DNA of 64,000 nucleotides from a virus. The stretch is taken from IMG/VR virus record IMGVR_UViG_3300011268_001497, positions 1 to 64,000 of that record, one strand, 5' to 3'. The position numbers and the translations under genes were made by a program. The notes beneath the pieces are model-generated. The model searched no databases and was not told the DNA's origin. It saw only the letters and a program-made list of their open reading frames with translations. Shown one piece after another: positions 11,521 to 29,417 of the stretch (within the stretch, counting starts at the first letter, position 1; each line of letters begins with the position of its first letter).

Positions 11521-11593
11521 GCTCCTCTAGCAATCTGGTGAATGCAGCGGACTCATAATCCGCCTTAGGCGAGTTCGATCCTCGCGGGGAGCA
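11521..11593 (+). tRNA. tRNA with CAT anticodon (elongator Met or Ile-lysidine type)
   Basis: Acceptor GCTCCTC/GGGGAGC, anticodon arm GCGGA-CTCATAA-TCCGC, T arm GCGAG-TTCGATC-CTCGC; CCA encoded 11594-11596; no initiator features (no GGG/CCC anticodon stem). Confidence 0.85.
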
Positions 11594-11599
11594 CCACAA

Positions 11600-11682
11600 G
11601 CCACGATGCTGAAACTGGTAAACAGAACGCACTTAAAATGCGTCGGCCCTTGGTCTTACGGGTTCGATTCCCGTTCGTGGCA
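11600..11682 (+). tRNA. tRNA-Leu (anticodon TAA), class II with long variable arm
   Basis: Acceptor GCCACGA/TCGTGGC, anticodon arm ACGCA-CTTAAAA-TGCGT, 14-nt variable arm, T arm ACGGG-TTCGATT-CCCGT; 83 nt; no encoded CCA. Confidence 0.85.
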
Positions 11683-12012
11683 CTAATCAAGCTGCTTTAC
11701 ACCCGCATGCACTTCGGCGTGACAGTTGGCGCAAAGCAGAGCACACTTATCAATTTCGTCTTTCAGCATTTGAATGCTAGCCCTTCTTTCGAGTGCCGAA
11801 ACAGATGCGATCTTGGTAGAAGGATCCCTGTGGTGAAAATGCATTACCCTTGGATGGTATTTAGTATTACAGAGCTCACATGGATTATCCTTGGCATCAA
11901 TAACAAGGTTCCTCTTTGTGATAATCCCGCCTTGCTGGGATCTCGGCTTTTTATTGCGTTTATGCCATTCACGTTGATAGACCCTCTGAGTCTCTCTATC
12001 CTTGTAGGCCAC
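11683..12012 (-). CDS. HNH endonuclease (paralogue of 11161..11454)
   Basis: 109 aa; CELCN...MHFHHRDPSTK...CALLCANCHAEVHA; stop codon abuts the 3' end of tRNA-Leu. Confidence 0.8.
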   Translation of the reverse strand: MAYKDRETQRVYQREWHKRNKKPRSQQGGIITKRNLVIDAKDNPCELCNTKYHPRVMHFHHRDPSTKIASVSALERRASIQMLKDEIDKCALLCANCHAEVHAGVKQLD

Positions 12013-18449: not shown

Positions 18450-18773
18450 CTAGGGGAAGGGGTTCTCATCATTAGTAATAGCAAGGGTATGAAATGGATT
18501 CCTTGATTCAAAGGCCGCTTCAATTCTATTCCCACAATGATCACAAGTCAAGTCTGTCTCATCCCAATTGATGTCCATTCCAATAACGCACCAGCCATCA
18601 TTGCCAGTGGTCGTACCAATCCAACTACGCTGACTTCCGCAGCATGCATGACACAGCGCTGCACCATCGTTTGTCCTCGCGTATAACGGATACCCGCCGG
18701 GCCATGCATAACGCTCTTTATGGACCTTGTCGGCGATTCTCAGGCTTTTTGATTGTGTTGTCATTTCAACCAA
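18450..18773 (-). CDS. hypothetical Cys-rich protein (107 aa)
   Basis: ORF track; CHACC...CDHC possible metal-binding cysteines. Confidence 0.5.
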   Translation of the reverse strand: MVEMTTQSKSLRIADKVHKERYAWPGGYPLYARTNDGAALCHACCGSQRSWIGTTTGNDGWCVIGMDINWDETDLTCDHCGNRIEAAFESRNPFHTLAITNDENPFP

Positions 18774-19065
18774 TGAGTTCTACATAAATAGGATGGGATT
18801 TTGCTTCCTCAAAAGTTAAGCCGTTCAAAGCTAAAGGCCATCCAAATCGTGTTATTTTATACATCGTACCGTTATTCCATTTCACAAAGGTCACTCGATC
18901 CAGCGGCCACGAGAACCCTGTTGGTACTGTAACGATCTCATCTGTCATTACAGCAGCACGATAGATATGCCCATAACGGGGATACCAATCCTCGCAGAAT
19001 GTTTCATGTGGATATGGATCATCCACAATGAATGAAGGCATGCTCGCAAAACGTGTCGTGGTCAC
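18766..19065 (-). CDS. hypothetical protein (99 aa)
   Basis: ORF track; 4- and 8-nt overlaps with neighbours. Confidence 0.5.
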   Translation of the reverse strand: MTTTRFASMPSFIVDDPYPHETFCEDWYPRYGHIYRAAVMTDEIVTVPTGFSWPLDRVTFVKWNNGTMYKITRFGWPLALNGLTFEEAKSHPIYVELIG

Positions 19066-19361
19066 TCCTCAACCCCTTCAAAGATGGCTTCGTTTTTGTT
19101 TCCGCAGATCCTTAACACCCTTCTGGCATCGAAGCTTCGCCAAGTAGTCTTCCCCTCCTCCTTGTTGCTGATCTCACGAATCCGAAAGATATTCGGATCG
19201 CTACAAGCAGTCCCAGTTCCCTTGATCTCATTGACATCCTTTGGGTTGAATGTCATATCACGAACGTCTCCGTTCTTCTTTACAAATTTAACAGAAACAA
19301 ACCGAGATCCAGATCGTTTGATGATGTCACGAACAATGTCACGACGTGGTGTTCCTTCCAT
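19062..19361 (-). CDS. hypothetical protein (99 aa)
   Basis: ORF track; operon packing. Confidence 0.5.
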   Translation of the reverse strand: MEGTPRRDIVRDIIKRSGSRFVSVKFVKKNGDVRDMTFNPKDVNEIKGTGTACSDPNIFRIREISNKEEGKTTWRSFDARRVLRICGNKNEAIFEGVEE

Positions 19362-19364
19362 GGT

Positions 19365-19592
19365 TCAGCTCCAGCAGTCAGCAATGAATTGGACAACCTG
19401 ATCAAGCGTGTCAAAGTCAGGACTAACCTGCAACTCAGTTGACCGCTCAATAACCTGATAAAAGGCCCCAGGCTGTCCTTCGAAACAGACTACGACCTCC
19501 TTGCCCTGCTTCCGCAGGCTCCAGTTGATCGACTCAAGTGTGGCTTGCATTGAAGGGGAATCCTCCCGTGTGACTCCCCTATCATACACCAC
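19365..19592 (-). CDS. hypothetical protein (75 aa)
   Basis: ORF track. Confidence 0.5.
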   Translation of the reverse strand: MVYDRGVTREDSPSMQATLESINWSLRKQGKEVVVCFEGQPGAFYQVIERSTELQVSPDFDTLDQVVQFIADCWS

Positions 19593-19630
19593 CTCAAGCC
19601 CCTGTCAAGTAGTTGGCTAGGTATAAATAC

Positions 19631-19906
19631 TCATTCTTCGACATCGTCGAACGTATTGATCAGCGCATGCTCCCCAATAACGGCTAATGCCGTCTTGTTC
19701 CATGCCTTCGCAGCCTCGATCTCGTCCACAAAGGCTCCGATATACCACCGCCTTCCCTGGAACGTCAAAGCAGCCCTGTAAGGCTTCTTCGGATCATTGT
19801 TCTTCGAAACACCCTTGTACTTGCTGAACTGAGGCTTGTTCCGTGGCCTGCTCGACAGCTTGATGTAGTGCTCCTTCTCGTCGACATTCCTGAAATAGTA
19901 GCCCAT
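19631..19906 (-). CDS. AP2-domain DNA-binding protein
   Basis: ORF 19631..19924 (GTG) or ATG at 19906; YKGVSKNNDPKKPYRAALTFQGRRWYIGAFVDEIEAAKAWNKTALAVIGEHALIN is an AP2/ERF-type domain. Confidence 0.7.
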   Translation of the reverse strand: MGYYFRNVDEKEHYIKLSSRPRNKPQFSKYKGVSKNNDPKKPYRAALTFQGRRWYIGAFVDEIEAAKAWNKTALAVIGEHALINTFDDVEE

Positions 19907-19992
19907 CTTTAAAACAAAAGACACGCAACTATAGACCCCGACCCCCTTAGCCTTAAAGATTTTATTTTTTCTTAATTATCCAGTAGCCCTTA

Positions 19993-20304
19993 TTAACCAT
20001 CACCTCTGAACCACCTCCTCTTATTCCCAAACCACTCCGCCAATGTCACAGGATCCTGTGGCCCTACCAGATGATCGCTCGGATCTGGCTCCCCTAAATC
20101 TAAAGCCTGACAAAACTCATCCATCTCACTTACCTCTTCCCCTTGGACAGCAGCTCTCCTCGCCTGTCTTAACATCTTGTCAACAGTTGGATTCCTATCC
20201 GCCCACTTCTGCACCCACGTCATATCACTGAACTCTACAGGAGCTCCTAATCGAATCCTCTCACAAATAAATTCAACTCTCTGGCGGGTTTGTGATGAAA
20301 GCAT
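19993..20304 (-). CDS. hypothetical protein (103 aa)
   Basis: ORF track; first gene downstream (leftward) of the long non-coding region. Confidence 0.5.
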   Translation of the reverse strand: MLSSQTRQRVEFICERIRLGAPVEFSDMTWVQKWADRNPTVDKMLRQARRAAVQGEEVSEMDEFCQALDLGEPDPSDHLVGPQDPVTLAEWFGNKRRWFRGDG

Positions 20305-20350
20305 TCCCGCTTTCCGGCTTGCATATTATTCCTTATCCACTTCTCAAACC

Positions 20351-20378
20351 TGTCTCATGAGACCCTCTTGATGAGACA
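20351..20378. promoter_or_regulatory. inverted repeat TGTCTCAT-N12-ATGAGACA upstream of the leftward gene 19993..20304
   Basis: Perfect 8-bp arms at 20351-20358 and 20371-20378, about 50-75 bp upstream of the ATG at 20304. Confidence 0.4.
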
Positions 20379-20474
20379 AAACCATCCCTTCACCCCTTTC
20401 TCAACTCTCTCAAAAGGGTATCTTTAAACTACCCCTAAGGGGTATCCTCAGACAACCCTTTTACCCCAAACGCT

Positions 20475-20538
20475 TTAATGTAATATTATTATCTAGAGTA
20501 TATATATTAATATATATATATTAACTAGATACTACTAG
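20475..20538. repeat. AT-rich palindromic block A
   Basis: TTAATGTAATATTATTATCTAGAGTATATATATTAATATATATATATTAACTAGATACTACTAG; (TA)n arms around a TTAA centre. Confidence 0.7.
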
Positions 20539-20595
20539 CTCTTATCAACTTGGTTAACAAGAACAACAGCCAATACTAAAAATCCTTCCTACCAT

Positions 20596-20614
20596 TGTCC
20601 TCCTTCGGAGGACA
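20596..20614. other. perfect 8-bp hairpin TGTCCTCC-TTC-GGAGGACA followed by TTTCCTTCCTTCCTTTCC
   Basis: Read directly at 20596-20632. Confidence 0.6.
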
Positions 20615-20884
20615 TTTCCTTCCTTCCTTTCCGCCAGCTAATTTTTTTTCTAAAAAAACCTTTTCTCTGTACCCTACACCCCATGGTTTTATCTGAAAGC
20701 CTCTGAGAGGTGTCTAGAAGCCCCTGGAAGACCCTTCTACTACCGCTTGGCTATCTTTCCCTATCCATACCCCCTAGAACCCTGTTACAGAGCCTTACAG
20801 ACCTAACCCCTCTCGCAACACCTAAAACCCTCCCTCAAATCCCTAAAACTGAAAATCATTCTCATCCCTCCAGTACTCATACGA

Positions 20885-20921
20885 CCCTCACCCCCTATAC
20901 CCCCTTAATCCCTTAAATCCC
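20885..20921 (-). other. G-quadruplex-type motif on the minus strand (five C3-5 tracts on +)
   Basis: CCC-TCA-CCCCC-TATA-CCCCC-TTAAT-CCC-TTAAAT-CCC; all loops 3-6 nt, satisfying G3+N1-7 x4 on the complementary strand. Confidence 0.6.
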
Positions 20922-21035
20922 TTCCAATATCTACATCCCCTAATCCAATTAACTACTTACTTACCCCCTTAACTACCCATTTTGATAAGGTTTAATCAGT
21001 TAATCTGATCATTCCTAGTACTACTAACCAGATAA

Positions 21036-21200
21036 GGTAATATGACCTAGTAACTAGTATATATATATTATAATATATATATTAATATATATAATCTAGT
21101 TATAGTATTTAAATACTCTGTATTTAAATACGATTAATCTAGTTATTCTAGTTAACTAATCTATCTAGTAATATTAATCTAGTTATTCCTAGTAATAACC
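21036..21200. repeat. AT-rich block B with iteron-like direct repeats and tandem palindromes
   Basis: TAATCTAGTTAT at 21092, 21135 and 21175 (17-mer ATTAATCTAGTTATTC shared by the last two; diverged copy TTAATCTGATCATTCCTAGTA near 21000); perfect palindrome GTATTTAAATAC at 21105-21116 and 21120-21131; (TA)n run 21056-21095. Confidence 0.75.
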
Positions 21201-21228
21201 CCCTCCCATAACCCTCTCATCCCCCTCT

Positions 21229-21441
21229 TTAACCCCATTTTTGAGGCCTTTCAGCCCCTCGCTGACGGTCAATCCAAAACAGAAAATGCCGCCGAACAGA
21301 CATCCGATTTCCCTTTTTCCCGTCGGCTGATTTTCCCTTTTTAAGATTTCTCAAAATGAGACGCGATGAGACGATGTCCAGGTCTTTGAGTACCTGTCTC
21401 AAACACAGGTACGCAGGAATTGGACCGACCCAGTCCCACAT
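21229..21441 (-). CDS. doubtful hypothetical protein (70 aa)
   Basis: ORF 21229..21558, ATG at 21441; upstream part of the track ORF runs through repeat element E1, so only the short form is plausible. Confidence 0.3.
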   Translation of the reverse strand: MWDWVGPIPAYLCLRQVLKDLDIVSSRLILRNLKKGKSADGKKGNRMSVRRHFLFWIDRQRGAERPQKWG

Positions 21442-21531
21442 CGCCTGACGGCGTGATCGCGAATAATAAGATATAATGATATCGTTATGCCAAGATCTAG
21501 ACCGACCCCGACCGAGTCCTCGCGACGGCGC

Positions 21532-21566
21532 GATCGTGAATGGCGCAAATGCGGCCATTCACGCTC
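21532..21566. repeat. cassette palindrome E1
   Basis: GATCGTGAATGGCGCAAATGCGGCCATTCACGCTC; CGTGAATGGC / GCCATTCACG 10-bp perfect arms. Confidence 0.8.
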
Positions 21567-21570
21567 ACCA

Positions 21571-21592
21571 AATAAAAAAGCCCCGAAGGGCT
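21571..21592 (-). terminator. rho-independent terminator (leftward)
   Basis: Minus strand reads AGCCC-TTCG-GGGCT followed by TTTTTTATTT; overlaps the stop of 21591..21779. Confidence 0.75.
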
Positions 21593-21779
21593 AAGAAGAT
21601 CTTATTCTCCAAGATTCGACCCAATAATGATCATCTGGGCATTCTCGATTCATTTCCTCTATGTGTTCTCTTGCTGCTGACATATTGTCGTAGATATCGC
21701 ATAGCCCCGTGTCGAAAGATTGAACAACGAACACCTCTTTACCGACGGGCCTGAGGACAATAATATCAGAGTTTGTCAT
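21591..21779 (-). CDS. hypothetical protein (62 aa)
   Basis: ORF 21591..21980, ATG at 21779 (14-nt overlap with upstream gene); MTNSDIIVLRPVGKEVFVVQSFDTG... Confidence 0.45.
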   Translation of the reverse strand: MTNSDIIVLRPVGKEVFVVQSFDTGLCDIYDNMSAAREHIEEMNRECPDDHYWVESWRIRSS

Positions 21780-22122
21780 AGCGCCAGCCCCAGCGTGGAA
21801 CGTAAGTGTAAAGATACTCGCAGCCCATGTTAAATGCGAATCGAGCCATTTCGCCGGCAGTAAGCCTACGGGGTTGGCAGTCAAGATCGCCTCTGTCGAT
21901 ATAGTATCTGGGGCCAACCTCCATAACGTTACCATTCCAATCAGTGGTGGCGCTAAGTGTAGACATGCTGCCAGGTGCAATCATCTTGCGGGCCTTCTTT
22001 GCCGTATCGTAACTGGTGGTAAGAATCGCCATTTGGTGCTCTGGATAGCCGTCATAATGACAGTAGACAATGTCATAAGTTGCATCCGGATTGCGTACAG
22101 CAATTGCAGAACGTGTTCCCAT
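21766..22122 (-). CDS. hypothetical protein (118 aa)
   Basis: ORF track; MGTRSAIAVRNPDATYDIVYCHYDGYPEHQ. Confidence 0.55.
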   Translation of the reverse strand: MGTRSAIAVRNPDATYDIVYCHYDGYPEHQMAILTTSYDTAKKARKMIAPGSMSTLSATTDWNGNVMEVGPRYYIDRGDLDCQPRRLTAGEMARFAFNMGCEYLYTYVPRWGWRYDKL

Positions 22123-22124
22123 GA

Positions 22125-22280
22125 TTAACCCTCGATAACTTGAATGTTTTCCTCGTCTAGCCAGTCGTCGAATTCTGGCAGATGAAGATAATCGTCGCCG
22201 TAGCCGATTGGTGAAGGATCGAAGTTGTCGGCGAATTCTTTGTATTCAGCCTTGGCCTGTTCGGCAGTCAACTGGCGCAT
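22125..22280 (-). CDS. possible small acidic protein (51 aa), below ORF-track cutoff
   Basis: Hand translation MRQLTAEQAKAEYKEFADNFDPSPIGYGDDYLHLPEFDDWLDEENIQVIEG*; fills the gap between 22284 and 22122 exactly. Confidence 0.4.
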   Translation of the reverse strand: MRQLTAEQAKAEYKEFADNFDPSPIGYGDDYLHLPEFDDWLDEENIQVIEG

Positions 22281-22283
22281 GAT

Positions 22284-22526
22284 TCAGTCTCCTTCGTTCC
22301 AGAACAGTTCGTATTCAGCGAAGCATCGAATGGCGTTATCGAGATCACCGTAGTGGTACTCCCTTTGAACGTAGAAGTTCTTCTCTACAGCTACCGGGTC
22401 GATGCAGACACCGTACTTTTCTTTCAGTCCGTCGGCGACATAATCGCAGAACTGAGCGAAGCTATCCCAAACGAGTTCCCAGTAGTCAGGGGATTCGAGG
22501 GAGCGGGGGTCGTGGAGGCAGGTCAT
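22284..22526 (-). CDS. hypothetical protein (80 aa)
   Basis: ORF 22284..22556, ATG at 22526 directly preceded by the conserved leader. Confidence 0.55.
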   Translation of the reverse strand: MTCLHDPRSLESPDYWELVWDSFAQFCDYVADGLKEKYGVCIDPVAVEKNFYVQREYHYGDLDNAIRCFAEYELFWNEGD

Positions 22527-22557
22527 GGGAGTGTTCCCTTGCGACTCCCTAATCATA
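22527..22557 (-). promoter_or_regulatory. conserved -10/leader cassette
   Basis: Minus strand: TATGAT-tagggaGTCGCAAGGGAacacTCCC-ATG. Confidence 0.6.
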
Positions 22558-22608
22558 ACGCATCAGCAGCCGGTCAGCCACTCAAGAGCAAATCTTTACA
22601 AAGCGCGT

Positions 22609-22649
22609 GAGCGTGAGTAAGGCCTCGCTTCGCGACGTTACTCACGATC
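22609..22649. repeat. cassette palindrome E2
   Basis: GAGCGTGAGTAAggcctCGCTTCGCGacgTTACTCACGATC; 9-bp arms CGTGAGTAA / TTACTCACG. Confidence 0.8.
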
Positions 22650-22675
22650 AAAATAAAAGGGGCGCTTGGCCCCTT
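22650..22675 (-). terminator. rho-independent terminator (leftward) after 22681..22866
   Basis: Hairpin AAGGGGC-GCTTG-GCCCCTT; minus strand followed by TTTTATTTT. Confidence 0.75.
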
Positions 22676-22680
22676 GTTTA

Positions 22681-22866
22681 TTATTTAATTTTGCAGATCC
22701 TATCTGATAGTTCCTCTAGCCTGTCGGGCTTAAAGTGCCACTTAAGATCTGATAATAGTTCCGGTTCGATAGGTTGATCCTGGACAATTTTCCAGAGAAT
22801 ATCTAAACCGTTGATAATCATTGTCCATTCATTCTTGTTAACAATGATGTGGCGACCTTCATTCAT
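22681..22866 (-). CDS. hypothetical protein (61 aa)
   Basis: ORF 22681..22905 (GTG); ATG at 22866 preceded by GGAG and overlapping the upstream small ORF (ATGAATGA). Confidence 0.5.
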   Translation of the reverse strand: MNEGRHIIVNKNEWTMIINGLDILWKIVQDQPIEPELLSDLKWHFKPDRLEELSDRICKIK

Positions 22867-23011
22867 CTTCAAGCTCCGTGTATTTGTAGGCCTGGATTGT
22901 TTCACCTAGCTTTATGTCTAGGTTTTGGTAGATAGCGTCCGGGATCCATTTTCGGGGATGGGCCGCATTATCATCAAGAGATAGGACGACCCTGATTTCA
23001 TACCGTTTCAT
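22859..23011 (-). CDS. possible small protein (50 aa), below ORF-track cutoff
   Basis: Hand translation MKRYEIRVVLSLDDNAAHPRKWIPDAIYQNLDIKLGETIQAYKYTELEDE*; ATGA overlap with the stop of 23008..23976. Confidence 0.4.
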   Translation of the reverse strand: MKRYEIRVVLSLDDNAAHPRKWIPDAIYQNLDIKLGETIQAYKYTELEDE

Positions 23012-23976
23012 CGTGCTAGCTCTAGAGCGGATTCGTGGGCTTTTTTGATAATCAGTGAGCCAGAGCCAAACAGAGCTGAATGCATACGGTGCTGGTTTGC
23101 ACCCTTGCTGCGCTGCGATGATTCCACCTCAGTTACAGCATTCAGGCCGTGGTAAACCGTACCGCGAACCCCGGCAATATCCATGCCGATGCCATAATGC
23201 CAGGCATGTTCCAGCTTTTTCCATTTCTGGGACAGATCTTCAATGCGACCAGGGCGGTCAACTTTAGCGGGGATAGTGTAGAGGGTTTCCAGCCAATGGC
23301 GATACATATCGAATGACATAGGGGCAGATTGCATTGCCCGATAATCATCGACCACGCTAACGAAGGATTGCCGGGCCATATCAATGGTTTGCAGAACACG
23401 GTCAATTTGCGCGATGTCGTTAGCGGTATGCTTAATGGTGAACTGTTTACCAGTACGGTTAGCGTCAGACTGAGCGAAGCCCAGTGTATTTGCGCACACT
23501 ACGCGAACATTTGTGAACATGCCGCCGAATGCTGTTTTGCCATCGTGGCCGAGGTATCCCACAATATTGCGGTGGATCTTGTCACCAGGCACAACCTCAT
23601 GATCGCTACCCCGCAGGCGGGCAGTGAAGGCCACCTTGGCGCCACCTTTCAAGACGATAACCGTATCCATATCAACCTCCTCGCGAATCGCCTCAGCGAA
23701 GCGCAACAGTTGATTGTTTTGGATAGGCTTGTAATGATCGGAGGCCCTGCCTAGGATCGTGCGGGTATCAGGCCGCCAGATGACCCGGTCATTCGGCATA
23801 TCAATATATTCGCCGTCAGCCGGGTTGGCTGCCATGCGGATAGCCTGGACAGGAAATAAAGCACCGGCGCGGGTAAAGGCTTCGCTTGCTGGCAGCGTGC
23901 CCTCTACAACTTCACCAAGACCATGCCATGCGGCCTGGCCATTCATCATGATGCCGGAAGTGAACTCGTGAGCCAT
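23008..23976 (-). CDS. DUF932-like phage/plasmid protein
   Basis: 322 aa; N-terminal GQAAWHGLG and central NVRVVCANTLGF resemble the DUF932 / TIGR03299 family as I recall it; not searched. Confidence 0.6.
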   Translation of the reverse strand: MAHEFTSGIMMNGQAAWHGLGEVVEGTLPASEAFTRAGALFPVQAIRMAANPADGEYIDMPNDRVIWRPDTRTILGRASDHYKPIQNNQLLRFAEAIREEVDMDTVIVLKGGAKVAFTARLRGSDHEVVPGDKIHRNIVGYLGHDGKTAFGGMFTNVRVVCANTLGFAQSDANRTGKQFTIKHTANDIAQIDRVLQTIDMARQSFVSVVDDYRAMQSAPMSFDMYRHWLETLYTIPAKVDRPGRIEDLSQKWKKLEHAWHYGIGMDIAGVRGTVYHGLNAVTEVESSQRSKGANQHRMHSALFGSGSLIIKKAHESALELAR

Positions 23977-24009
23977 GGGAGGATTTCCTCTCGGGACCCC
24001 TTTACTATA
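23977..24009 (-). promoter_or_regulatory. conserved -10/leader cassette (variant)
   Basis: Minus strand: TATAGT-aaaggGGTCCCGAGAGGAaatcCTCCC-ATG. Confidence 0.55.
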
Positions 24010-24069
24010 CAGCAGACTGAGCCAGAACGCAGTGGAATCACAAAACTTAACAAAGGACTGGCGCCGTGT

Positions 24070-24110
24070 GACCGTGATAAACGTCGCTTCGCGAGGCCTT
24101 TATCACGATC
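24070..24110. repeat. cassette palindrome E3
   Basis: GACCGTGATAAAcgtCGCTTCGCGaggccTTTATCACGATC; 9-bp arms; interior is the inverse of the E2 interior. Confidence 0.8.
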
Positions 24111-24120
24111 TCGATCCTTA

Positions 24121-24151
24121 AATATAAAATAGGGGACTGATTTAGCCCCCT
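24121..24151 (-). terminator. probable terminator (leftward) after 24160..24891
   Basis: Minus strand: AGGGGGCTAAATCAGTCCCCT followed by ATTTTATATT. Confidence 0.6.
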
Positions 24152-24159
24152 AAAGTAAT

Positions 24160-24891
24160 TCAAACTAGTTGGACATGTTTCTTGCCGGAACCGTGTGCTT
24201 CGACCCATATATCTTGCTTACCGCCATCGCATAATTTGCAAGTGATACATTGTGCCATTGATTGCTCAATTGTGGCCGGGCATTGCTTCCCGAAAGAATT
24301 ATTTTTAGCGCCGACAGGTAGCACGCTAAATGTATGCCAGCCATGAGCAGTTGCCTCCAGATAATCATTGAAACCATCGCAAGATGCCTGAAAATATTTT
24401 TTATAAAGTTGGGCGAATTGTTGCCGCCATTGGTGAGTGTACCCGGTATGCGCCTTGGCGAAGCGATTGAAGAACTCAAAAACAGAGAAGGGAATCAGCG
24501 CAGGGTCACCATAAGCTCCCCAGCGGATTGAACGCCCTTTAAGCATCTTCTGTACGGCTTCAATGTTATCAAGGGCCGGCGGATAGCAGCCGCGATGGTA
24601 TGCTTTCCAGATGCTATTTGGCGACTGGCCAACATTAACATAGCAGGATCTTTTTTTTGTTTCAGGATTTTTTCTGTGGATACAATCGCCGCAGATAGAA
24701 TAATCCGCACCGATCTCAATAGCCTCAACCGGATTAATGTCCCGCAGCATAATCCAGACCTGGCACATATTGCCCGTCTTGCGATTCGTGCTTTCTAAAG
24801 TAACAATAGCGACACACTCTTTACCATCAATCAGGGAGGGGAATTCGGCGAGGACGTAACCCTTGGGCGCTTGCTTTTTGTTGGATTGCAT
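24160..24891 (-). CDS. hypothetical Cys-rich protein (243 aa)
   Basis: ORF track; cysteine clusters ICGDCIH, CYVN, CITCKLCDG suggest metal binding; no family recognised. Confidence 0.55.
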   Translation of the reverse strand: MQSNKKQAPKGYVLAEFPSLIDGKECVAIVTLESTNRKTGNMCQVWIMLRDINPVEAIEIGADYSICGDCIHRKNPETKKRSCYVNVGQSPNSIWKAYHRGCYPPALDNIEAVQKMLKGRSIRWGAYGDPALIPFSVFEFFNRFAKAHTGYTHQWRQQFAQLYKKYFQASCDGFNDYLEATAHGWHTFSVLPVGAKNNSFGKQCPATIEQSMAQCITCKLCDGGKQDIWVEAHGSGKKHVQLV

Positions 24892-25090
24892 TTTGCTGTT
24901 TGTTGTTGAGATGATTTAGGACACGGTAAGCCACTTCAAAAAATAAATATCCCACAAAAACCAGGGGAATATATAAAGAAATGGCGGCGATGATGGGGAA
25001 GAAAATGAACGCGACTGATTGAACAATCGGAGCCGGTACGGTTAAGCCTTCCTCTGGAATGATGTAAACAGGTGGCGCCGGTGGTGGCAT
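24827..25090 (-). CDS. hypothetical small membrane protein (87 aa)
   Basis: ORF track; two hydrophobic helices (VAFIFFPIIAAISLYIPLVFVGYLFF); preceded by leader variant; 65-nt overlap with the next gene makes the 3' part uncertain. Confidence 0.4.
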   Translation of the reverse strand: MPPPAPPVYIIPEEGLTVPAPIVQSVAFIFFPIIAAISLYIPLVFVGYLFFEVAYRVLNHLNNKQQNAIQQKASAQGLRPRRIPLPD

Positions 25091-25124
25091 AAGGGGAGTG
25101 TTCCCGTGTTGCTCTGTCAGTGTA
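25091..25124 (-). promoter_or_regulatory. -10/leader cassette (variant)
   Basis: Minus strand: TACACT-gacagagcaacacGGGAacacTCCCctt-ATG. Confidence 0.45.
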
Positions 25125-25235
25125 GCCTAAACATCCGGCCAGCGCAAGACAACGCCTATTCATCGCCGGCATGGTATAAGGGTATAACGCTACTGTTTTG
25201 GAATGGTTAGAAATCGTTACAGAAGGAGGCTGCGT

Positions 25236-25276
25236 GAGCGTGATCAACGCTTCGCGGAGCGACGTTGGTCACGATC
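25236..25276. repeat. cassette palindrome E4 (in the divergent region between leftward and rightward units)
   Basis: GAGCGTGATCAACGCTTCGCGgagcgaCGTTGGTCACGATC; arms CGTGATCAACG / CGTTGGTCACG with one G-T. Confidence 0.8.
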
Positions 25277-25303
25277 AGGAAACTTAAAGCAGAAATATTT
25301 TTT

Positions 25304-25477
25304 ATGATGGATTTCGAAGACAAGATCAAGCTCGTCAGAGAAAAAGCACAGGCATATGTCGACATTAAAAAGGCGGAAGCCTTTGAGGCGCAGATTAAAG
25401 CGTATGAAATGCAGTTAGAAAGAATCAAGCAGAACCCGTCTTTGATGGAACCAAAGTCATCGTCTAAAATGAACTGA
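25304..25477 (+). CDS. hypothetical coiled-coil protein (57 aa)
   Basis: ORF 25265..25477 (TTG inside E4); ATG at 25304 preferred. Confidence 0.45.
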   Translation: MMDFEDKIKLVREKAQAYVDIKKAEAFEAQIKAYEMQLERIKQNPSLMEPKSSSKMN

Positions 25478-25524
25478 TATAGCGATTGGTATCGGTTTGA
25501 GAAAAGATGTCCGCCTGTCGGCGT

Positions 25525-25562
25525 GACCGTGAATGGCGGTCGCACGACCATCGTTCACGATC
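25525..25562. repeat. cassette element E5
   Basis: GACCGTGAATGGCGGTCGCACGACCATCGTTCACGATC followed by AATTTTTATTA. Confidence 0.8.
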
Positions 25563-25602
25563 AATTTTTATTACGGCCCTCGCTTTCGGGTGGGGGCTTT
25601 GC

Positions 25603-25633
25603 TATGATTAAGAGGTCCCAAGGGAGTAGTCCC
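25603..25633 (+). promoter_or_regulatory. conserved -10/leader cassette
   Basis: TATGAT-taagagGTCCCAAGGGAgtagTCCC-GTG; preceded by GC hairpin GGCCCTCG..CGGGTGGGGGC. Confidence 0.6.
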
Positions 25634-25831
25634 GTGACTTCCAATCAGCTGAACGCCCAATGCGCCGAGATCCTTGATGCAATGGAGGTTCTGGTTGCTC
25701 GTTTCGACAGTCTGCGCAATCTGGCTAGTGATGACGCGTGGGATGCGGCATGCACTGAGAAGCCCTATCTCGACCTGCTTTCAGATATAGAGTACGAGGT
25801 TGAACAGGCTCTGGAGGCGATTCGCGTTTGA
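25634..25831 (+). CDS. hypothetical acidic protein (65 aa)
   Basis: ORF 25523..25831; upstream part of the track ORF runs through E5 and the leader, so GTG at 25634 right after the leader is preferred. Confidence 0.45.
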   Translation: MTSNQLNAQCAEILDAMEVLVARFDSLRNLASDDAWDAACTEKPYLDLLSDIEYEVEQALEAIRV

Positions 25832-25864
25832 TCGTGACTGGCGGTACGACCATCGTTCACGCTC
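25830..25864. repeat. cassette element E6
   Basis: GATCGTGACTGGCGGTACGACCATCGTTCACGCTC; the TGA stop of the preceding ORF (25829-25831) is part of TGATCGTGA. Confidence 0.8.
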
Positions 25865-25908
25865 AGATAATTTTTGTTTCAGGCCTTGCTAAAGGGCTCG
25901 GCCTTCTG

Positions 25909-25939
25909 TATTCTTGAAAAGTACCAAGGGAATCATCCC
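25909..25939 (+). promoter_or_regulatory. conserved -10/leader cassette
   Basis: TATTCT-tgaaaagTACCAAGGGAatcaTCCC-ATG; preceded by hairpin AGGCC..GGCCT. Confidence 0.55.
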
Positions 25940-26125
25940 ATGAACTCTGCACTTCTGGATCGCGGCCTCCTGCCTTTCGACAAGCTCAACATTGCCTTCT
26001 GCGCCCGCCAGCGAGCCGTGCTCAATACGCGGACTAGCGAGGAGTTCGAGGGCGAATACAACACGGCTCACCTGTGGATGCGCCATACGCTGCAAACCAT
26101 GGGAGGCAGGAACTGGAGCTACTGA
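25940..26125 (+). CDS. hypothetical protein (61 aa), paralogue of 27316..27528
   Basis: ORF 25874..26125, ATG at 25940 after leader; FDKLNIAFCARQRAV matches FDWLNLAHCATQRAM in the minus-strand ORF 27316..27528 (10/15 identical). Confidence 0.5.
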   Translation: MNSALLDRGLLPFDKLNIAFCARQRAVLNTRTSEEFEGEYNTAHLWMRHTLQTMGGRNWSY

Positions 26126-26137
26126 AACTGCGAGCTT

Positions 26138-26173
26138 GATCGTGACTGGCGCCTGCGACCATCGTTCACGCTC
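26138..26173. repeat. cassette element E7
   Basis: GATCGTGACTGGCGCCTGCGACCATCGTTCACGCTC; nearly identical to E6 except the centre. Confidence 0.8.
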
Positions 26174-26198
26174 ACTAAATACCAACGAGGGAAACCCC

Positions 26199-26432
26199 AT
26201 GACCGTCACTGCTAAGTCCACCAAGGCTGAGATCCTGGCCGCCTACGAGGCACTGAAAGCTCAGCAAGAATCCCAGACCATCACTTGGCCCCTTGTCGTC
26301 AGCACAGCCCGCACCGTAGCCCGCGAGACTCACCTGCTGGTTGTCGACGTTCAGAAGGGCGTAACCCTTGCAGCGCAATGGATCTCGGGAATAGTTGCCG
26401 AGCTGACCAAACCAGTGCTACACTCGGCTTGA
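26199..26432 (+). CDS. hypothetical protein (77 aa)
   Basis: ORF 25992..26432, ATG at 26199 preceded by caacgaGGGAaaCCCC (short leader variant) 25 nt after E7. Confidence 0.45.
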   Translation: MTVTAKSTKAEILAAYEALKAQQESQTITWPLVVSTARTVARETHLLVVDVQKGVTLAAQWISGIVAELTKPVLHSA

Positions 26433-26466
26433 TCGTGATTGACGCCTGCGGCCATTGTTCACGCTC
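26431..26466. repeat. cassette element E8
   Basis: GATCGTGATTGACGCCTGCGGCCATTGTTCACGCTC; preceding stop TGA (26430-26432) embedded in TGATCGTGA. Confidence 0.8.
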
Positions 26467-26509
26467 AGAAAACTTTTATTACGGCCTCGCTCAAGCGGGG
26501 CCTTTGCTG

Positions 26510-26540
26510 TATGATGGAGGAGTCCCAGGGAATAATCCCG
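26510..26540 (+). promoter_or_regulatory. conserved -10/leader cassette
   Basis: TATGAT-ggaggaGTCCCAGGGAataaTCCCg-ATG; preceded by 8-bp hairpin GGCCTCGC-TCAA-GCGGGGCC. Confidence 0.6.
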
Positions 26541-26819
26541 ATGTCACGCACCACCGACTTCATCATCGATCTTGAGGATGCCCAGCTTGCGGCTGACCTT
26601 GCCTCGTATCAAACTGCAGGCCAGCTCTGCGTTCTCAGCAATCTCGTCTGGCGTGCCGGTCGACAAGAGGGTCCGTCTCTCGATGTGCCGTTGGCTGGAA
26701 TCGAACAGCACTGGATCGATGCCATGCGCGACCAGCTCCGGGAAGCACTGGTTTGCCTGGATGAACTGCAGGCTGCGAACGAGGCTCTGGAGTGTGAGAG
26801 AGGTCTCGCTACCGTCTGA
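26541..26819 (+). CDS. hypothetical protein (92 aa)
   Basis: ORF 26439..26819, ATG at 26541 after leader; N-terminus MSRTTDFII resembles MSATTDHIL of 26980..27246. Confidence 0.5.
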   Translation: MSRTTDFIIDLEDAQLAADLASYQTAGQLCVLSNLVWRAGRQEGPSLDVPLAGIEQHWIDAMRDQLREALVCLDELQAANEALECERGLATV

Positions 26820-26849
26820 TCGTGACGCCTGCGGCCATTGTTCACGCTC
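26818..26849. repeat. cassette element E9 (5-nt shorter copy of E8)
   Basis: GATCGTGACGCCTGCGGCCATTGTTCACGCTC; preceding stop TGA (26817-26819) embedded. Confidence 0.8.
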
Positions 26850-26932
26850 ATTAGCATAACTTATCAATCAGGGCCGACCGATCAGGATCGCTTATCATTA
26901 CAAAAGTTCACAAAAACTTTTTCACTAAAAAG

Positions 26933-26956
26933 CCCCCAGTACAGATGTACTAGGGG
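26933..26956. terminator. probable bidirectional terminator between convergent units
   Basis: CCCCCAGTAC-AGAT-GTACTAGGGG flanked by AAAAAG upstream and TGAATTGTTT downstream. Confidence 0.6.
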
Positions 26957-26979
26957 TGAATTGTTTATACTTAGCAGGC

Positions 26980-27246
26980 TTAGCGTTGTTGTTGATTAAG
27001 GTGTCGGTTGAGTGTAAACAATTGGGCGTGCCAATCAGTGATGGCGTCGACGCAAGATCCTACCGAATCGATGTCAAGATCTGTGCAGGGCATCAGATTA
27101 TTTATCAGCATTGTTGAAACGTCAAGCAATGCCATTCGGTAGAAGAACCTCTCTGAATCATTGAGCGAAGCGTACATGGGATTTGCTTCGATTAGCTGTT
27201 CGATCAGTTCAGCCTGAGAGAGGATGTGGTCGGTGGTTGCGCTCAT
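26980..27246 (-). CDS. hypothetical protein (88 aa)
   Basis: ORF 26980..27312, ATG at 27246 directly after leader. Confidence 0.5.
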   Translation of the reverse strand: MSATTDHILSQAELIEQLIEANPMYASLNDSERFFYRMALLDVSTMLINNLMPCTDLDIDSVGSCVDAITDWHAQLFTLNRHLNQQQR

Positions 27247-27277
27247 GGGATTGTTCCCTTGGGACTCCTTTATTATA
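27247..27277 (-). promoter_or_regulatory. conserved -10/leader cassette
   Basis: Minus strand: TATAAT-aaaggaGTCCCAAGGGAacaaTCCC-ATG; preceded by hairpin AGGGG..CCCCT (27284-27305). Confidence 0.65.
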
Positions 27278-27315
27278 GAGGGTAGGGGCCACTGGTGCGA
27301 CCCCTGTAACAAGTC

Positions 27316-27528
27316 TTAGTACTTTGCTGCCTTCTTCGCCAGCGCTCGGGCTGCGTGATATTCGCTGTAGAATCCGTCATGAGACAGGCCGGCCTGAGCC
27401 ATGGCCCGTTGGGTTGCGCAGTGTGCGAGGTTGAGCCAATCGAACAGGCTCAGTTCTTCGTCTGTCTTATCACCGCACCGCCAGACGGCGAGGTTGAGAT
27501 CAGCGAGGTGGGAATCAGTGAGGGCCAT
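27316..27528 (-). CDS. hypothetical protein (70 aa), paralogue of 25940..26125
   Basis: ORF 27316..27639 (GTG), ATG at 27528 after leader; shares FD.LN.A.CA.QRA and EY..A motifs with 25940..26125. Confidence 0.5.
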   Translation of the reverse strand: MALTDSHLADLNLAVWRCGDKTDEELSLFDWLNLAHCATQRAMAQAGLSHDGFYSEYHAARALAKKAAKY

Positions 27529-27581
27529 GGGGATCTCCCCTTGGGACCCCTCTAGTATAGCGCAATGGATGGGCGTGTCAA
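27529..27581 (-). promoter_or_regulatory. near-consensus sigma-70-type promoter plus conserved leader
   Basis: Minus strand: TTGACA-N16-TATACT-agagGGGTCCCAAGGGGagatCCCC-ATG. Confidence 0.7.
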
Positions 27582-27627
27582 CAATGTTACGAGATGTGAC
27601 GTGGTGGCGTGGTGGTGGTGGATGGTG

Positions 27628-27659
27628 TAGGATGGGCACATCACCAAGGGAGCATTCCC
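27628..27659 (+). promoter_or_regulatory. -10-like hexamer plus conserved leader (rightward)
   Basis: TAGGAT-gggcacatCACCAAGGGAgcatTCCC-ATG; back-to-back with the leftward promoter at 27554-27581. Confidence 0.5.
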
Positions 27660-27893
27660 ATGAGACCCTTCCTCCTTGCCGCCGCCTTCTCCTGTGGATC
27701 TGCCATGGCAGGGGTGTTCTACCTCAGCAGCATGGCAACCCCCATCATCAGCGAAGCTCGGGCAGAGAAGCTCGGTGCATACTGCGAGGCAGGTGTGCCC
27801 GAAGCATGCGAGATCCTAGCGGCCGAGTCGAATGGACAGTGTGCCGGACCCTCGGGCAGTGGCTGCCTCTATAACAGTAGCGTTATGAGGTGA
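27660..27893 (+). CDS. hypothetical secreted Cys-rich small protein (77 aa)
   Basis: ORF 27609..27893, ATG at 27660 after leader; signal-like MRPFLLAAAFSCGSAMA; 6 further cysteines. Confidence 0.5.
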   Translation: MRPFLLAAAFSCGSAMAGVFYLSSMATPIISEARAEKLGAYCEAGVPEACEILAAESNGQCAGPSGSGCLYNSSVMR

Positions 27894-27904
27894 TGTGCAG
27901 CACG

Positions 27905-27924
27905 GGTGGTACAGGCGTACCACC
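27905..27924 (+). other. perfect 8-bp hairpin GGTGGTAC-AGGC-GTACCACC after 27660..27893
   Basis: Read directly; T-run (TTTTTT) lies about 20 nt downstream, so terminator function is uncertain. Confidence 0.4.
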
Positions 27925-28000
27925 CCCCACCCCCGAAAATTCCTTTTTTAGTGCCAAAGCAACCCCCTCAGGTTTTCTGAGAAAATTTCCGAAACCGAAA

Positions 28001-28159
28001 ATGCCACTTTCAAAATTGACCACCAAGTTTTTGATTATTATTTTTATGATGACGTTATTTAGTGGAGTAGCGGAGGCTAAGCGAGAGAAGAGTGAGCAGA
28101 AGTGGAGGAGTTGTTGGGTGACGAGGGGCAATGTAAGGACGAGGGTTATTTGTCAATAA
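28001..28159 (+). CDS. possible small secreted basic peptide (52 aa)
   Basis: ORF 27890..28159, ATG at 28001; MPLSKLTTKFLIIIFMMTLFSGVAEA then KREKSEQKWRSCWVTRGNVRTRVICQ; a stop-free + frame is unusual in C-poor sequence where all three stops are frequent. Confidence 0.3.
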   Translation: MPLSKLTTKFLIIIFMMTLFSGVAEAKREKSEQKWRSCWVTRGNVRTRVICQ

Positions 28160-28316
28160 GGGAGGAGAGGTGATTTAGTTTAAGGAGGATATAGGAGAGG
28201 AGAGGGGTACCGATGAGGGAGGAGTAGAGAGCGATACGGATTTCATGTTGGCGGATTTTATCGTCCATTTGGCGTAGGAGCCAGGGAGTTATGGTGGGGT
28301 CAGAGGAGGTTTCGAT

Positions 28317-28341
28317 GGGGTCTGGGCGACGGGATTGGGGG
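28317..28341 (+). other. canonical G-quadruplex motif on the + strand
   Basis: GGGG-TCT-GGG-CGAC-GGG-ATT-GGGGG. Confidence 0.65.
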
Positions 28342-28654
28342 TTAGAGGTCATGATCAGGCGATAGAGCGAAGGTAGTCGCGTTGTTTTGGGGTAAGGAGA
28401 GGGAGGAGGCGGAGGAGGAGTTTTTTAGAGGGATCTAGGTCTAGGGTTGAGTACATAGTGGATAGGATTTGTTTAATTGCGATAGTGTAAGAGGATTGGA
28501 TAGCGAGGTAGAGGGCGAGGGTGAGGGTTAATTGTTGATGCATTGGATAGGAGTAGAGTTATATGATTAATTCTAGGGCAATATTAGGAAAACTAGTGGT
28601 TATTTACGAATAAAAGTATGAATATTGGAAGTATAAGGGGAGTAAGTAGGCATT

Positions 28655-29056
28655 ATGGCGACATTAGACACTAGTTATGGGTGGGTTGCCGGTGATGTGG
28701 AGCGTATTTTGCTTGCTCTTGACTTAGGGATTGGTGGTTATACGATTAGTGAGATGACGGTGTGTTGTAATAAGTTAGGGGAGACGAGTTCAACGCTTGT
28801 TGGGAGGGTGAGAGAGCTTTTAGGGGAGTATGACGATGCGATTGAGGTGCAAAAGGGGTTAGGAGTGAGTGAGGATGCGGGGAGGACGTTAATCAAGGCT
28901 GATGTATTGGAGTGGGAGGTAGATAAGGGGGGTCGATTTGAGGCAATTATGAGGGAAAAGGGAAGGATTAATGATGAATTGCTTAAGATATTTGCATTTT
29001 GTCCGCTAGCATTTGGCGGTTCCAGTAGAAATAGCACGTCACTTATCAGGTCTTAG
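28655..29056 (+). CDS. hypothetical protein (133 aa) encoded in C-depleted DNA
   Basis: ORF track; a 133-codon stop-free frame on the C-poor strand is very unlikely by chance; protein is Gly/Glu/Leu/Val-rich as expected from C-poor codons. Confidence 0.6.
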   Translation: MATLDTSYGWVAGDVERILLALDLGIGGYTISEMTVCCNKLGETSSTLVGRVRELLGEYDDAIEVQKGLGVSEDAGRTLIKADVLEWEVDKGGRFEAIMREKGRINDELLKIFAFCPLAFGGSSRNSTSLIRS

Positions 29057-29058
29057 TC

Positions 29059-29238
29059 ATGATTCACCCCGAGAATGGAGAGGGGTTAAATGAGATTATT
29101 GATTTTGTAGAGAGGCAGGAGATGATTGATGTATGGTGTAAGGGATGTAGTATGTTTCGTAAGGCAAATAGTGCTTATGCGAAGTATTTAAATGGAGAGA
29201 TTAATGGATGTAGGTTTTGCAGAGAGGATAATGCGTAA
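29059..29238 (+). CDS. possible small zinc-ribbon-like protein (59 aa), below ORF-track cutoff
   Basis: Hand translation MIHPENGEGLNEIIDFVERQEMIDVWCKGCSMFRKANSAYAKYLNGEINGCRFCREDNA*; CxxC...CxxC. Confidence 0.4.
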   Translation: MIHPENGEGLNEIIDFVERQEMIDVWCKGCSMFRKANSAYAKYLNGEINGCRFCREDNA

Positions 29239-29239
29239 A

Positions 29240-29347
29240 ATGCTGACAGAGGAGGATTTAGAGGGATTAATGGAGAGGGCTAAGAGTCTTAAGATGATGG
29301 AGTTATTTGAGGAGCCGAGCAGTTATGAGGATGAGGAGGAGGAGTAA
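29240..29347 (+). CDS. possible very small acidic protein (35 aa)
   Basis: Hand translation MLTEEDLEGLMERAKSLKMMELFEEPSSYEDEEEE*; starts 1 nt after previous stop. Confidence 0.3.
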   Translation: MLTEEDLEGLMERAKSLKMMELFEEPSSYEDEEEE

Positions 29348-29417
29348 AGATTTCGTTAACAATTGAGGTAAACTGAATAAGTCCAAAAGTTTGGGCTTGT
29401 TCTTACTTATTACTTCA

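Follow-up and report, generated by a model that had tools for sequence, protein, structure and literature searches.

A G-poor non-coding control region and a mirror-image skew domain that flank the variable gene island of a psbA-carrying cyanosiphovirus

The DNA analyzed here is a stretch of 64,000 nucleotides (nt) from the IMG/VR virus record IMGVR_UViG_3300011268_001497 (positions 1 to 64,000; referred to as the window), which belongs to a psbA-carrying cyanosiphovirus, i.e. a siphovirus-type cyanophage, from an estuary metagenome. Its landmarks are the genes for the terminase large subunit (906-2429), primase (3168-4739), ribonucleotide reductase (5572-7956), portal (8553-10145), psbA (29418-30497) and the tape measure protein (39891-44564). 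Nearly all genes of the window are oriented rightward. The exception is the segment from 18.4 to 27.9 kilobases (kb), in which an operon oriented leftward (18450-20304) is followed by small genes interspersed with hairpin repeats, the variable island (21.3-27.9 kb). A region of 840 base pairs (bp) at 20390-21228, which is very poor in G on its + strand, is located between the leftward operon and the island. This region and a mirrored domain on the other side of the island are the subject of this work. For comparison, loci and contigs of related phages were used, which are designated by L-numbers; for the left region the lineages compared were L001/L186, L003/L189, L191 and, in part, L053. S-CBS2 and S-CRES1, S-CRES2 and S-CRES3 are the only cultured relatives that the searches brought up; their homologues of the 133-amino-acid (aa) protein of this locus are 34-42% identical and carry the label 'hypothetical'.

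The base composition of 20390-21228 is A.305, C.280, G.087 and T.328, and the three 60-nt lines of 20820-20999 contain 2, 1 and 4 G, as expected from a preliminary description of the region that had been made by eye. That description had proposed windowed statistics as a check. In 200-nt windows over the whole 64 kb, G drops below 10% at 20321-21280 only and C at 28001-29420 only. All 15 windows of 400 nt with an absolute GC skew of at least 0.5 fall within these two domains, and in 0.98 Mb of other phage contigs a single one of 9329 such windows (0.01%) reaches this value. Thus, the skew is both exceptional and local. The left domain extends from about 19900 to 21050 and is therefore wider than had been claimed, taking in the first gene of the leftward operon. 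Its + strand is G-poor and C-rich (C 35-43% and G 3-9% in the core), with the most extreme skew at 20750-21000 (-0.7 to -0.86) and a weakening leftward. The right domain (28050-29350) has a C-poor (8.7%) and G-rich (36%) + strand. On both flanks the G-rich strand points 5' to 3' away from the island, leftward in the left arm and rightward in the right arm. The existence and polarity of the mirror segment, placed at 27.9-29.35 kb by the preliminary description, were thus borne out, but this domain is mostly coding and spans 28.05-29.35 kb.

The coding capacity of the right arm allows the bias to be assigned to a strand. The arm contains three plus-strand genes (28655-29056, 29059-29238 and 29192-29347) and, on the minus strand, a 68-aa open reading frame (ORF; 28146-28352) and a 62-aa gene (28355-28543). 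In the plus-strand genes only 2-7% of the third codon positions are C. In the minus-strand 62-aa gene G makes up 3% of position 3 and 11% of position 1, as compared to about 35% normally at the latter. Judged from its sequence family, the 62-aa gene is real: nine homologues share 35-58% identity and a set of invariant columns, and the gene carries an annotation in S-CRES1 and S-CRES3. As C or G is depleted in plus- and minus-strand genes alike, the bias belongs to the DNA strand and not to the sense strand. Moreover, the family motif ERDW is changed to QRDW or QRDY by a G to C exchange at codon position 1 in all four skewed members (window, L053, L054 and L055). The left arm includes the 103-aa gene (19993-20304, minus strand, PHROG 507), the first of the leftward operon, with 7% C and 39% G at codon position 3; its homologues in L001-L003 encode proteins of 85-87% identity. 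The bias overrides protein conservation, and the earlier view that the skew is not explained by coding is supported by synonymous sites and conserved residues alike.

In all relatives, the gene of the 62-aa protein (..LLPLLSPxxRDWL) and the 133-aa gene are divergent. Codons for Glu, Val and Gly have almost disappeared from the former in the skewed lineages; its product may have a regulatory role. Searches of the arm genes against Pfam and PHROGs were uninformative. The window is 100% identical to an estuary metagenome contig of 76,460 bp. A look-up of exact protein matches likewise yielded nothing but copies 100% identical to the window and hence no population variation.

The type of base exchange was also considered. 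In the skew domains A and T are about equal overall and purines are enriched (64%) on the G-rich strand. A footprint of cytosine deamination would give an excess of T over A on the G-rich strand, in contrast to the equality and purine excess found, and a guanine-oxidation footprint was rejected as GG is not depleted among the residual G. A purely mutational footprint of transcription- or replication-coupled deamination is unlikely. With deamination and oxidation disfavoured, selection on the composition, or an unknown biased process, remains.

Such a selection could act on RNA. Outward transcripts would then be kept C-poor, either to remain unstructured for translation or to escape C-dependent endoribonucleases like MazF-type toxins, and the left arm would be a long C-poor leader or non-coding RNA. 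The domains do match candidate transcription units, the removal of C is most complete at the synonymous sites of the plus-strand genes, and only weak structure is predicted for the RNAs. A C is part of the recognition site in most sequence-specific mRNA interferases. The conserved minus-strand gene in the right arm, however, yields a C-rich and G-poor mRNA and therefore the rule cannot be that phage mRNAs avoid C. Furthermore, no Rfam family was detected in 19500-30000 (no match at E<=1), no covarying structure was found in the conserved block of the left region (see below), and nothing in the window identifies a relevant nuclease. Overall, we regard selection on RNA as quite unlikely. Likewise, a long purine-rich non-coding RNA, one of the possibilities raised in the preliminary description, does not serve as a general explanation because both strands of the mirror domain encode proteins and it is the DNA strand to which the bias is tied.

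Non-coding and located between transcription units, the 840-bp region qualifies as a genuine control region bordering the variable island on its left: it carries repeated and palindromic motifs of the protein-binding type that are conserved in relatives. It is ORF-free under the standard code, as had been stated. The longest open frame has 69 codons and is found on the G-poor strand, the composition of which makes stop codons rare. Although a tRNA with a CTA anticodon is present, no convincing ORF emerged in the region upon recoding of TAG, TGA or TAA. This tRNA (11445-11520; amber-suppressor type, labelled tRNA-Pyl by ARAGORN) heads a cluster of three tRNAs (with 11521-11683), and TAG is the rarest stop codon among the long ORFs (3 of 42); a stop codon may be reassigned or suppressed in part of the genome.

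An operator-like cluster of GTCTCA, TGAGAC and TGAGAC, located at 20352-20378 before the 103-aa gene, is conserved in L003 and L001. A second cluster (TGAGAC, TGAGAC and GTCTCA; 21357-21401), which together with the hairpin GTACCTG-N9-CAGGTAC occupies 21357-21412, precedes the start of the variable island. The two clusters, 1 kb apart, amount to 6 copies of the hexamer, with about 0.4 expected. The stem of this hairpin is conserved in L001 and L003 and its loop is variable. Between the clusters, two copies of the repeat GGGGTATCCTCAGACAACCC (GGGGTATCCTCAGAC-type, GGGGTATCC repeats) at 20415-20458 have counterparts in two to four copies in L001, L003 and L053. A TA-rich block (20487-20530) forms the left arm of a 35-nt inverted repeat with 21068-21102 (89% complementary) and contains a minus-strand sigma-70-like match (20524 to 20497). 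It is followed by the perfect hairpin GTCCTCC-TTCG-GAGGAC (20596-20614) with its (TTCC)n tail (to 20632), which had been described before and is terminator-like on the + strand; this element is lineage-specific, not being conserved in L001 or L003. A 13-codon minus-strand ORF (MVGRIFSIGCCSC; 20594-20556) behind a perfect AAGGAGG that is sequestered in the hairpin is not conserved in L001 and L003 either. The inverted run reported as A8/T8 at 20642-20658 is present as well, but with the actual lengths T8 and A7.

The most conserved block, CTGAGAGGTGTCTAGAAGCCCCTGGAAGACC at 20695-20745, holds most of the G remaining in the core. For the GAGAGGTGTCTAGAAG block, a conserved RNA structure was considered and rejected, as RNAalifold returned only a local stem of 5 bp with no compensatory pairs. 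A possible long-range pairing (TCTAGAAG/CTTCTAGA in L001 and TCTGTAAG/CTTACAGA in L053) is broken in the window, and these elements can be read equally well as repeated half-palindromic binding sites. A part of the conserved block (20703-20735; TGAGAGGTGTCTAGAAG..CTrGAAGG) recurs exactly at the thyX stop codon in the unrelated cyanophage contigs L131, L135 and L146, where a hairpin of about 110 nt (-54 to -64 kcal/mol) has it as its 5' arm; perhaps it represents a regulatory or mobile element that is widespread among cyanophages. Rfam gave no match for these three contigs either.

A second conserved block of the core, at 20885-20937, consists of C-tracts followed by CAATATCTACATCC. To the right of it, the AT-rich segment 21000-21198 contains 14 CTAG with 3 expected and a near-perfect palindrome at 21051-21102, TAACTAG-(TA)n-CTAGTTA (TAACTAGTTA), which is conserved in L001, L003 and L053. 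With two minus-strand sigma-70-like matches (21113 to 21084 and 21085 to 21056), this segment is, from its sequence, a candidate start of leftward transcription or a candidate unwinding element. As for iterons, a 9-bp TTAATCTAG repeat occurs six times in the window at 62% match, and no initiator gene was identified in PHROGs or Pfam scans of the window ORFs.

Across L001/L186, L003/L189, L191 and partly L053, the architecture of the region is conserved, as are the TA palindrome, the C-tract block CCCTAAACCC..ATATCTAC and the blocks GAGAGGTGTCTAGAAGCCCyTgGAAG, TTTCCCCTAT and TTAGAGAGCCTT. The G-poor spacer between the blocks is only 50-56% identical among the lineages, as compared to 85-87% for the neighbouring protein, yet its G content is 5-7% in each, with the remaining G mostly within conserved motifs. 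Thus, it is the composition and not the sequence that is maintained. The composition of the left domain is retained in L001, L003, L186 and L191.

The preliminary description had placed emphasis on G-quadruplex (G4) or i-motif formation and on a resemblance to telomeres. If such a structure were the functional core of the arms, its motifs should stand out from the composition. The five C-tracts noted at 20885-20921 are present. Motifs of at least four runs of at least three G (or C) with short loops are located at 20885-20921 and 21199-21236 on the minus strand and at 28317-28341 on the plus strand, so that of four canonical G4 motifs in the 64 kb all but one belong to the arms. As compared to dinucleotide shuffles, the core has 1 motif (0.39 +/- 0.59 in shuffles), the 840-bp region 2 (0.2 +/- 0.44) and the right arm 1 (0.37 +/- 0.59). 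G-run and G4 counts differ from the shuffles by no more than about one standard deviation in three of five regions tested, the core and the right arm among them; only the 840-bp region and the extended left arm exceed them. C is clumped into runs in the left arm more than in a mononucleotide shuffle, and the C-tract block CCCTAA-CCCTAAA-CCC with ATATCTAC is conserved in the window, L186 and L191. Against a structural core, the motif is weak in L189/L003, and an equally biased stretch of coding DNA, 1.3 kb long, would be left unaccounted for. With respect to a telomere-like tandem array, TRF detected only CCCTTAAAT in 2.6 copies (a 9-mer) and CCCCCTCTCAT in 2.7 copies. The motif counts are thus not clearly above what the composition gives; nevertheless one C-tract block is conserved in three to four lineages. 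A G4, i-motif or telomere-like structure as functional core appears highly improbable to us, and the telomere-like repeats of the preliminary description amount to no more than the 9-mer.

The left arm is closed by a boundary element (C-tracts ... CAGCCCCTC ... AAAACAGAAAATGCC; 21199-21295, plus strand), which also contains the second minus-strand G4 motif (21199-21236). It is a degenerate direct repeat of a copy at the right side (27905-28010, plus strand; ACCCCCCACCCCC ... GCAACCCCCTCAGGTTTTCTGAGAAAAT ... GAAAATGCC; ACCCCCCACCCC ... GCAACCCCCTCAG.TTTTCTGAGAAAAT), which is conserved in L053, L054, L050, L124, L117 and L072. The two copies bracket the island, which may therefore sit inside a once-contiguous control region. 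The skew sets in sharply, within about 50 nt past the boundary element, in the window, L053, L054 and L124, and decays over 1-3 kb (L124, L107 and L054). In L124 a different gene, of 300 aa, occupies the position adjacent to the boundary and is C-poor, and the 133-aa homologue further downstream is ordinary in composition. The right domain is retained in L050-L056 and L107, and L186 shows the same order on the left, the left arm being followed by an island of normal composition. The skew is graded by lineage: absent in S-CRES3, moderate in S-CRES1 and L057, and extreme in the window, L053 and L107.

In a scan of viral contigs, the boundary element was detected only in the relatives already known and in one 131-kb contig, L176. 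There, around 8300-8712, a similar motif follows 400 nt of strongly G-poor DNA (skew -0.56 to -0.68), and the phenomenon may exist in a very different phage as well. In L053, about ten tandem AT-rich repeats of 28 bp (9232-9502; iteron-like) are located directly beside the right arm, and the equivalent AT-rich spacer of about 1 kb in L124 contains palindromic ATCTGAATGAATCAGAT repeats. Of the 76 contigs with a homologue of the 133-aa gene (L050-L125), about 30 start no more than 1 kb upstream of the homologue, at unrelated sequences; the edge of the island is therefore a systematic breakpoint of metagenome assembly. A genome terminus or packaging site was considered in this context and rejected: the contig starts of the relatives upstream of the 133-aa gene share no sequence, the L001-L003 contigs end within the first island cassette, and the terminase gene is about 18 kb away. 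The contig ends nearby being scattered assembly breaks, the packaging-related or anti-restriction structure suggested earlier is not supported.

The island itself (21300-27900) consists of small ORFs punctuated by hairpin repeats (GATCGTGA...TCACGCTCA), with a conserved stem-loop, CCAAGGGAnnnnTCCCATGA, over many of the start codons. Its hairpins recur in the islands of L001 and L186. On the other side of the left arm, the leftward operon encodes at 19631-19924 (minus strand) a stand-alone 97-aa protein that resembles plant AP2/ERF DNA-binding domains (PDB WRI1, E 2.7e-4); elsewhere, in phages and cyanobacteria, this type of domain accompanies HNH homing nucleases. Binding to poly(dG)/poly(dC) has been described for a cyanobacterial AP2 domain; such a specificity would be in keeping with the C-tracts adjoining the 97-aa gene.

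These relationships bear on a passive origin of the arms, by which they would have arisen through gene decay, represent foreign DNA of odd composition that was acquired recently, or act as a Rho-loading (rut-like) insulator against inward transcripts. The sharp boundaries of the right arm and the presence of ordinary genes upstream of the 103-aa homologue in more distant relatives point in this direction. Moreover, the G-poor and C-rich strand has the composition of a strong Rho-loading site, and its minimum free energy is -45 as opposed to -116 kcal/mol per 400 nt. In contrast, tblastn with all upstream ORFs of 16 relatives uncovered no protein-level remnant in the 840-bp region (best E 0.02 against a 1.3-kb target). 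Gene decay and an unexceptional skew had been named as the two outcomes that would overturn the preliminary description, and neither was observed. The bias is positional, affecting whichever gene occupies the site, as in L124, and it is graded among lineages. In addition, genes that are vertically inherited have been reshaped, which argues for evolution in situ. A Rho-loading site is disfavoured because cyanobacteria are without Rho homologues (PMC13613805), and no Rho-like helicase was found among the window ORFs scanned against PHROGs or Pfam. Taken together, a passive origin is very unlikely.

Signals resembling promoters and terminators coincide with the limits of the domains. In the right arm, a plus-strand sigma-70-like match, TTGACC-17-TATTTT (28016-28044), is positioned exactly at the onset, and a terminator-like hairpin of 12 pairs (29375-29402, plus strand) at the end, just before psbA. 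The domain of L053 ends at a T-run hairpin (10772-10791), and in L054 the skew drops stepwise at four terminator-like hairpins (1859, 2329, 2677 and 3028). The minus-strand promoter-like sites of the left arm (21113 to 21056) are situated within the TA palindrome, just right of the extreme stretch 20750-21000. Nearest-neighbour energies of RNA:DNA hybrid versus DNA duplex, with values after Sugimoto 1995 and SantaLucia 1998, place the most hybrid-favouring 300-nt windows of the 64 kb in the arms and in the outward direction (28120 rightward and 20669 leftward), the sums per arm being -126 and -156 kcal/mol outward and about 0 inward, by a measure that largely restates composition. Folding energies per 400 nt are -27 to -45 kcal/mol for the G-poor strand and -77 to -84 kcal/mol for the G-rich strand, against a background of -116 +/- 17 kcal/mol. 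An easily unwound AT-rich element, comprising the TA palindrome (21051-21102) within the AT-rich segment 21000-21198, is directly adjacent.

On these grounds we tentatively favour, as a possibility rather than a conclusion, that two transcription units run outward from the island and that the arms are their promoter-proximal zones, prone to R-loops and possibly used to prime replication. The left unit would consist of a leader of about 0.75 kb plus the operon of the 103-aa gene, with the 840-bp region as its leader and control region, and the right unit would extend from about 28050 to the hairpin at 29375. Strong outward transcription would start from the island edges, beside the boundary element, the AT-rich palindromes and the promoter-like sites. 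The nascent RNA, G-rich and C-poor on a C-rich template, would form the most stable RNA:DNA hybrids, and the single strands would be nearly structure-free. R-loops formed in this way could prime outward leading-strand DNA synthesis in the manner of phage T4 origins and/or make the edges of the island accessible to recombination, with the AT-rich palindromes and repeat arrays beside the arms acting as unwinding element. Promoter firing, R-loop formation and R-loop use are what we infer; the composition, the strand rule, the positional onset and decay, the conservation and the energetics are observed. Of the explanations offered in the preliminary description, R-loop-based priming of replication fits the polarity, the onset at outward promoter-like sites, the decay, the steps at terminator-like hairpins and the hybrid energetics.

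Several observations weigh against outward R-loop-prone units. The promoter and terminator calls are consensus matches only, with counts near the shuffle expectation, and the hybrid energies, calculated with literature parameters, are largely another expression of the composition. The boundary element of L053 has no comparable plus-strand promoter match, and the left domain has no terminator-like end. The left copy of the boundary element is direct and not inverted, and therefore cannot itself be a leftward promoter. Transcription of the minus-strand gene in the right arm would oppose the dominant unit proposed here. As A and T are about equal and purines are in excess, a purely mutational version would need unusual transversions, or selection has to be invoked. 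Finally, the extreme form is absent from the cultured phages S-CRES1, S-CRES2, S-CRES3 and S-CBS2; it is therefore not essential to this phage group.

Part of the same evidence can be read as replication-origin asymmetry without transcription. In this case the AT-rich palindromes or iterons beside the boundary element would mark an origin, and the G bias of the leading strand would be exaggerated in the origin-proximal DNA, which is single-stranded for the longest time. The change of the skew from negative to positive from left to right has the polarity of an origin, the easily unwound TA palindrome (21051-21102) is accompanied by a CTAG repeat array, the tandem repeats of L053 and the palindromic repeats of L124 described above are suitably placed in AT-rich DNA, and the skew declines away from the edge. 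However, the skew at a single boundary element is one-sided: to the left of the repeats in L053 and L124 there is no mirrored domain. The excess of G over C is not accompanied by one of T over A, steps at terminator-like hairpins are unexpected from replication, and the recognisable replication genes (primase, 3168-4739) are distant. Furthermore, no switch of the skew on the genome scale is separable from gene orientation. We therefore consider an origin without transcription unlikely.

To a similar degree improbable is a role of the arms in recombination alone. Breaks in the island, e.g. by homing-type nucleases, followed by 5' to 3' resection would leave fold-free, G-free 3' tails that load recombinases or annealing proteins and aid the exchange of the island; in a mutational variant, G would be lost on the tail. 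By the geometry that we infer, the strand left as a 3' tail after an island break is the G-poor one in both arms, and this strand is nearly structure-free (-27 to -45 versus -116 kcal/mol per 400 nt). The content of the island varies among relatives and the arms persist, the island edges are very frequent breakpoints in the relatives' contigs, the neighbourhood of the left arm encodes an AP2-type domain of the kind typically seen in HNH homing nucleases, and the decay with distance resembles a distribution of resection lengths. On the other hand, the arms are just 50-70% identical between the available lineages and would be a poor substrate for exchange, and neither a nuclease gene nor a cut site was identified in the island. 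As for the mutational variant, the residual G on the G-poor strand is without GG depletion and hence without a guanine-oxidation signature, and cytosine deamination on the tail would deplete C on a strand that is in fact C-rich. The coincidence with promoter-like and terminator-like sites would also be left unexplained.

Should the arms be R-loop or origin elements, they would provide a sequence signature for replication starts and highly transcribed entry points in uncultured phages, in which such sites are almost never known. They would also extend to bacterial viruses the connection of GC skew with R-loops and origins, a matter of debate in eukaryotes. The locus also illustrates the reach of a DNA-level pressure, with synonymous sites at 2-7% of one base and a conserved Glu changed to Gln in a small regulator-like protein. 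By bracketing a hypervariable island, the arms may explain both the exchange of the island and the breaks in metagenome assemblies. It is conceivable, albeit doubtful, that paired, polar, one-base-poor domains at island edges represent a previously undescribed architectural element of phages, selected for stable outward R-loops (or fold-free resection tails) and serving as unidirectional replication starts and/or landing pads for island swaps, under a pressure that rewrites conserved residues. A description of paired island-flanking strand-asymmetry domains in phages was not found in the literature library searched.

When compared to known systems, the variable island of small genes separated by hairpin repeats resembles the hyperplastic regions and promoter-stem-loop cassettes of T4-type phages, in which small genes alternate with repeated hairpin-plus-promoter units and for which we know of no flanking strand-asymmetry domains. 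Immunoglobulin class-switch regions are kilobase-long, have a G-rich non-template strand, flank exchangeable segments and start recombination by transcription-dependent R-loops. They consist of tandem repeats in one orientation and depend on AID, whereas the arms described here lack tandem repeats, have mirrored polarity and come with no deaminase. The mitochondrial control region likewise contains conserved blocks and G-rich elements, and the strand bias of mitochondrial genomes shifts codon and amino-acid usage, graded with single-stranded time. The phage locus shares the non-coding control region with conserved blocks and a strand bias strong enough to alter codon and amino-acid usage. The mitochondrial bias is of the transition type (G+T versus A+C) and genome-wide; here, in contrast, A and T are about equal, the G-rich strand is enriched in purines and the bias is confined to about 1.3 kb.

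In CpG-island genes, the non-template strand shows an excess of G over C from the transcription start onward, which is lost within 1-2 kb. The phage locus is like such eukaryotic promoters in onset, decay and length scale. The magnitude is far higher (0.6-0.86), though, and occurs in a phage of a Rho-less bacterium, in two mirrored domains around a variable island and with amino-acid usage overridden. In human cells, GC-skewed, R-loop-forming promoter regions have been proposed to specify origins (PMC4412123). At the R-loop origins of T4 (oriF/uvsY and oriG/34) and in the RNA II system of ColE1, a promoter fires into an easily unwound region and the hybridised transcript primes the leading strand in the direction of transcription (PMC3016281). 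Unlike these origins, the arms are kilobase-scale domains that run through genes, and an origin at them is a prediction from sequence. To our knowledge, T4 and ColE1 origins are short (tens to a few hundred bp), with no known kilobase-scale one-base-poor composition through genes. What the arms have in common with them is that outward promoter-like sites lie in or next to TA palindromes and that the outward RNA:DNA hybrid is strongly favoured.

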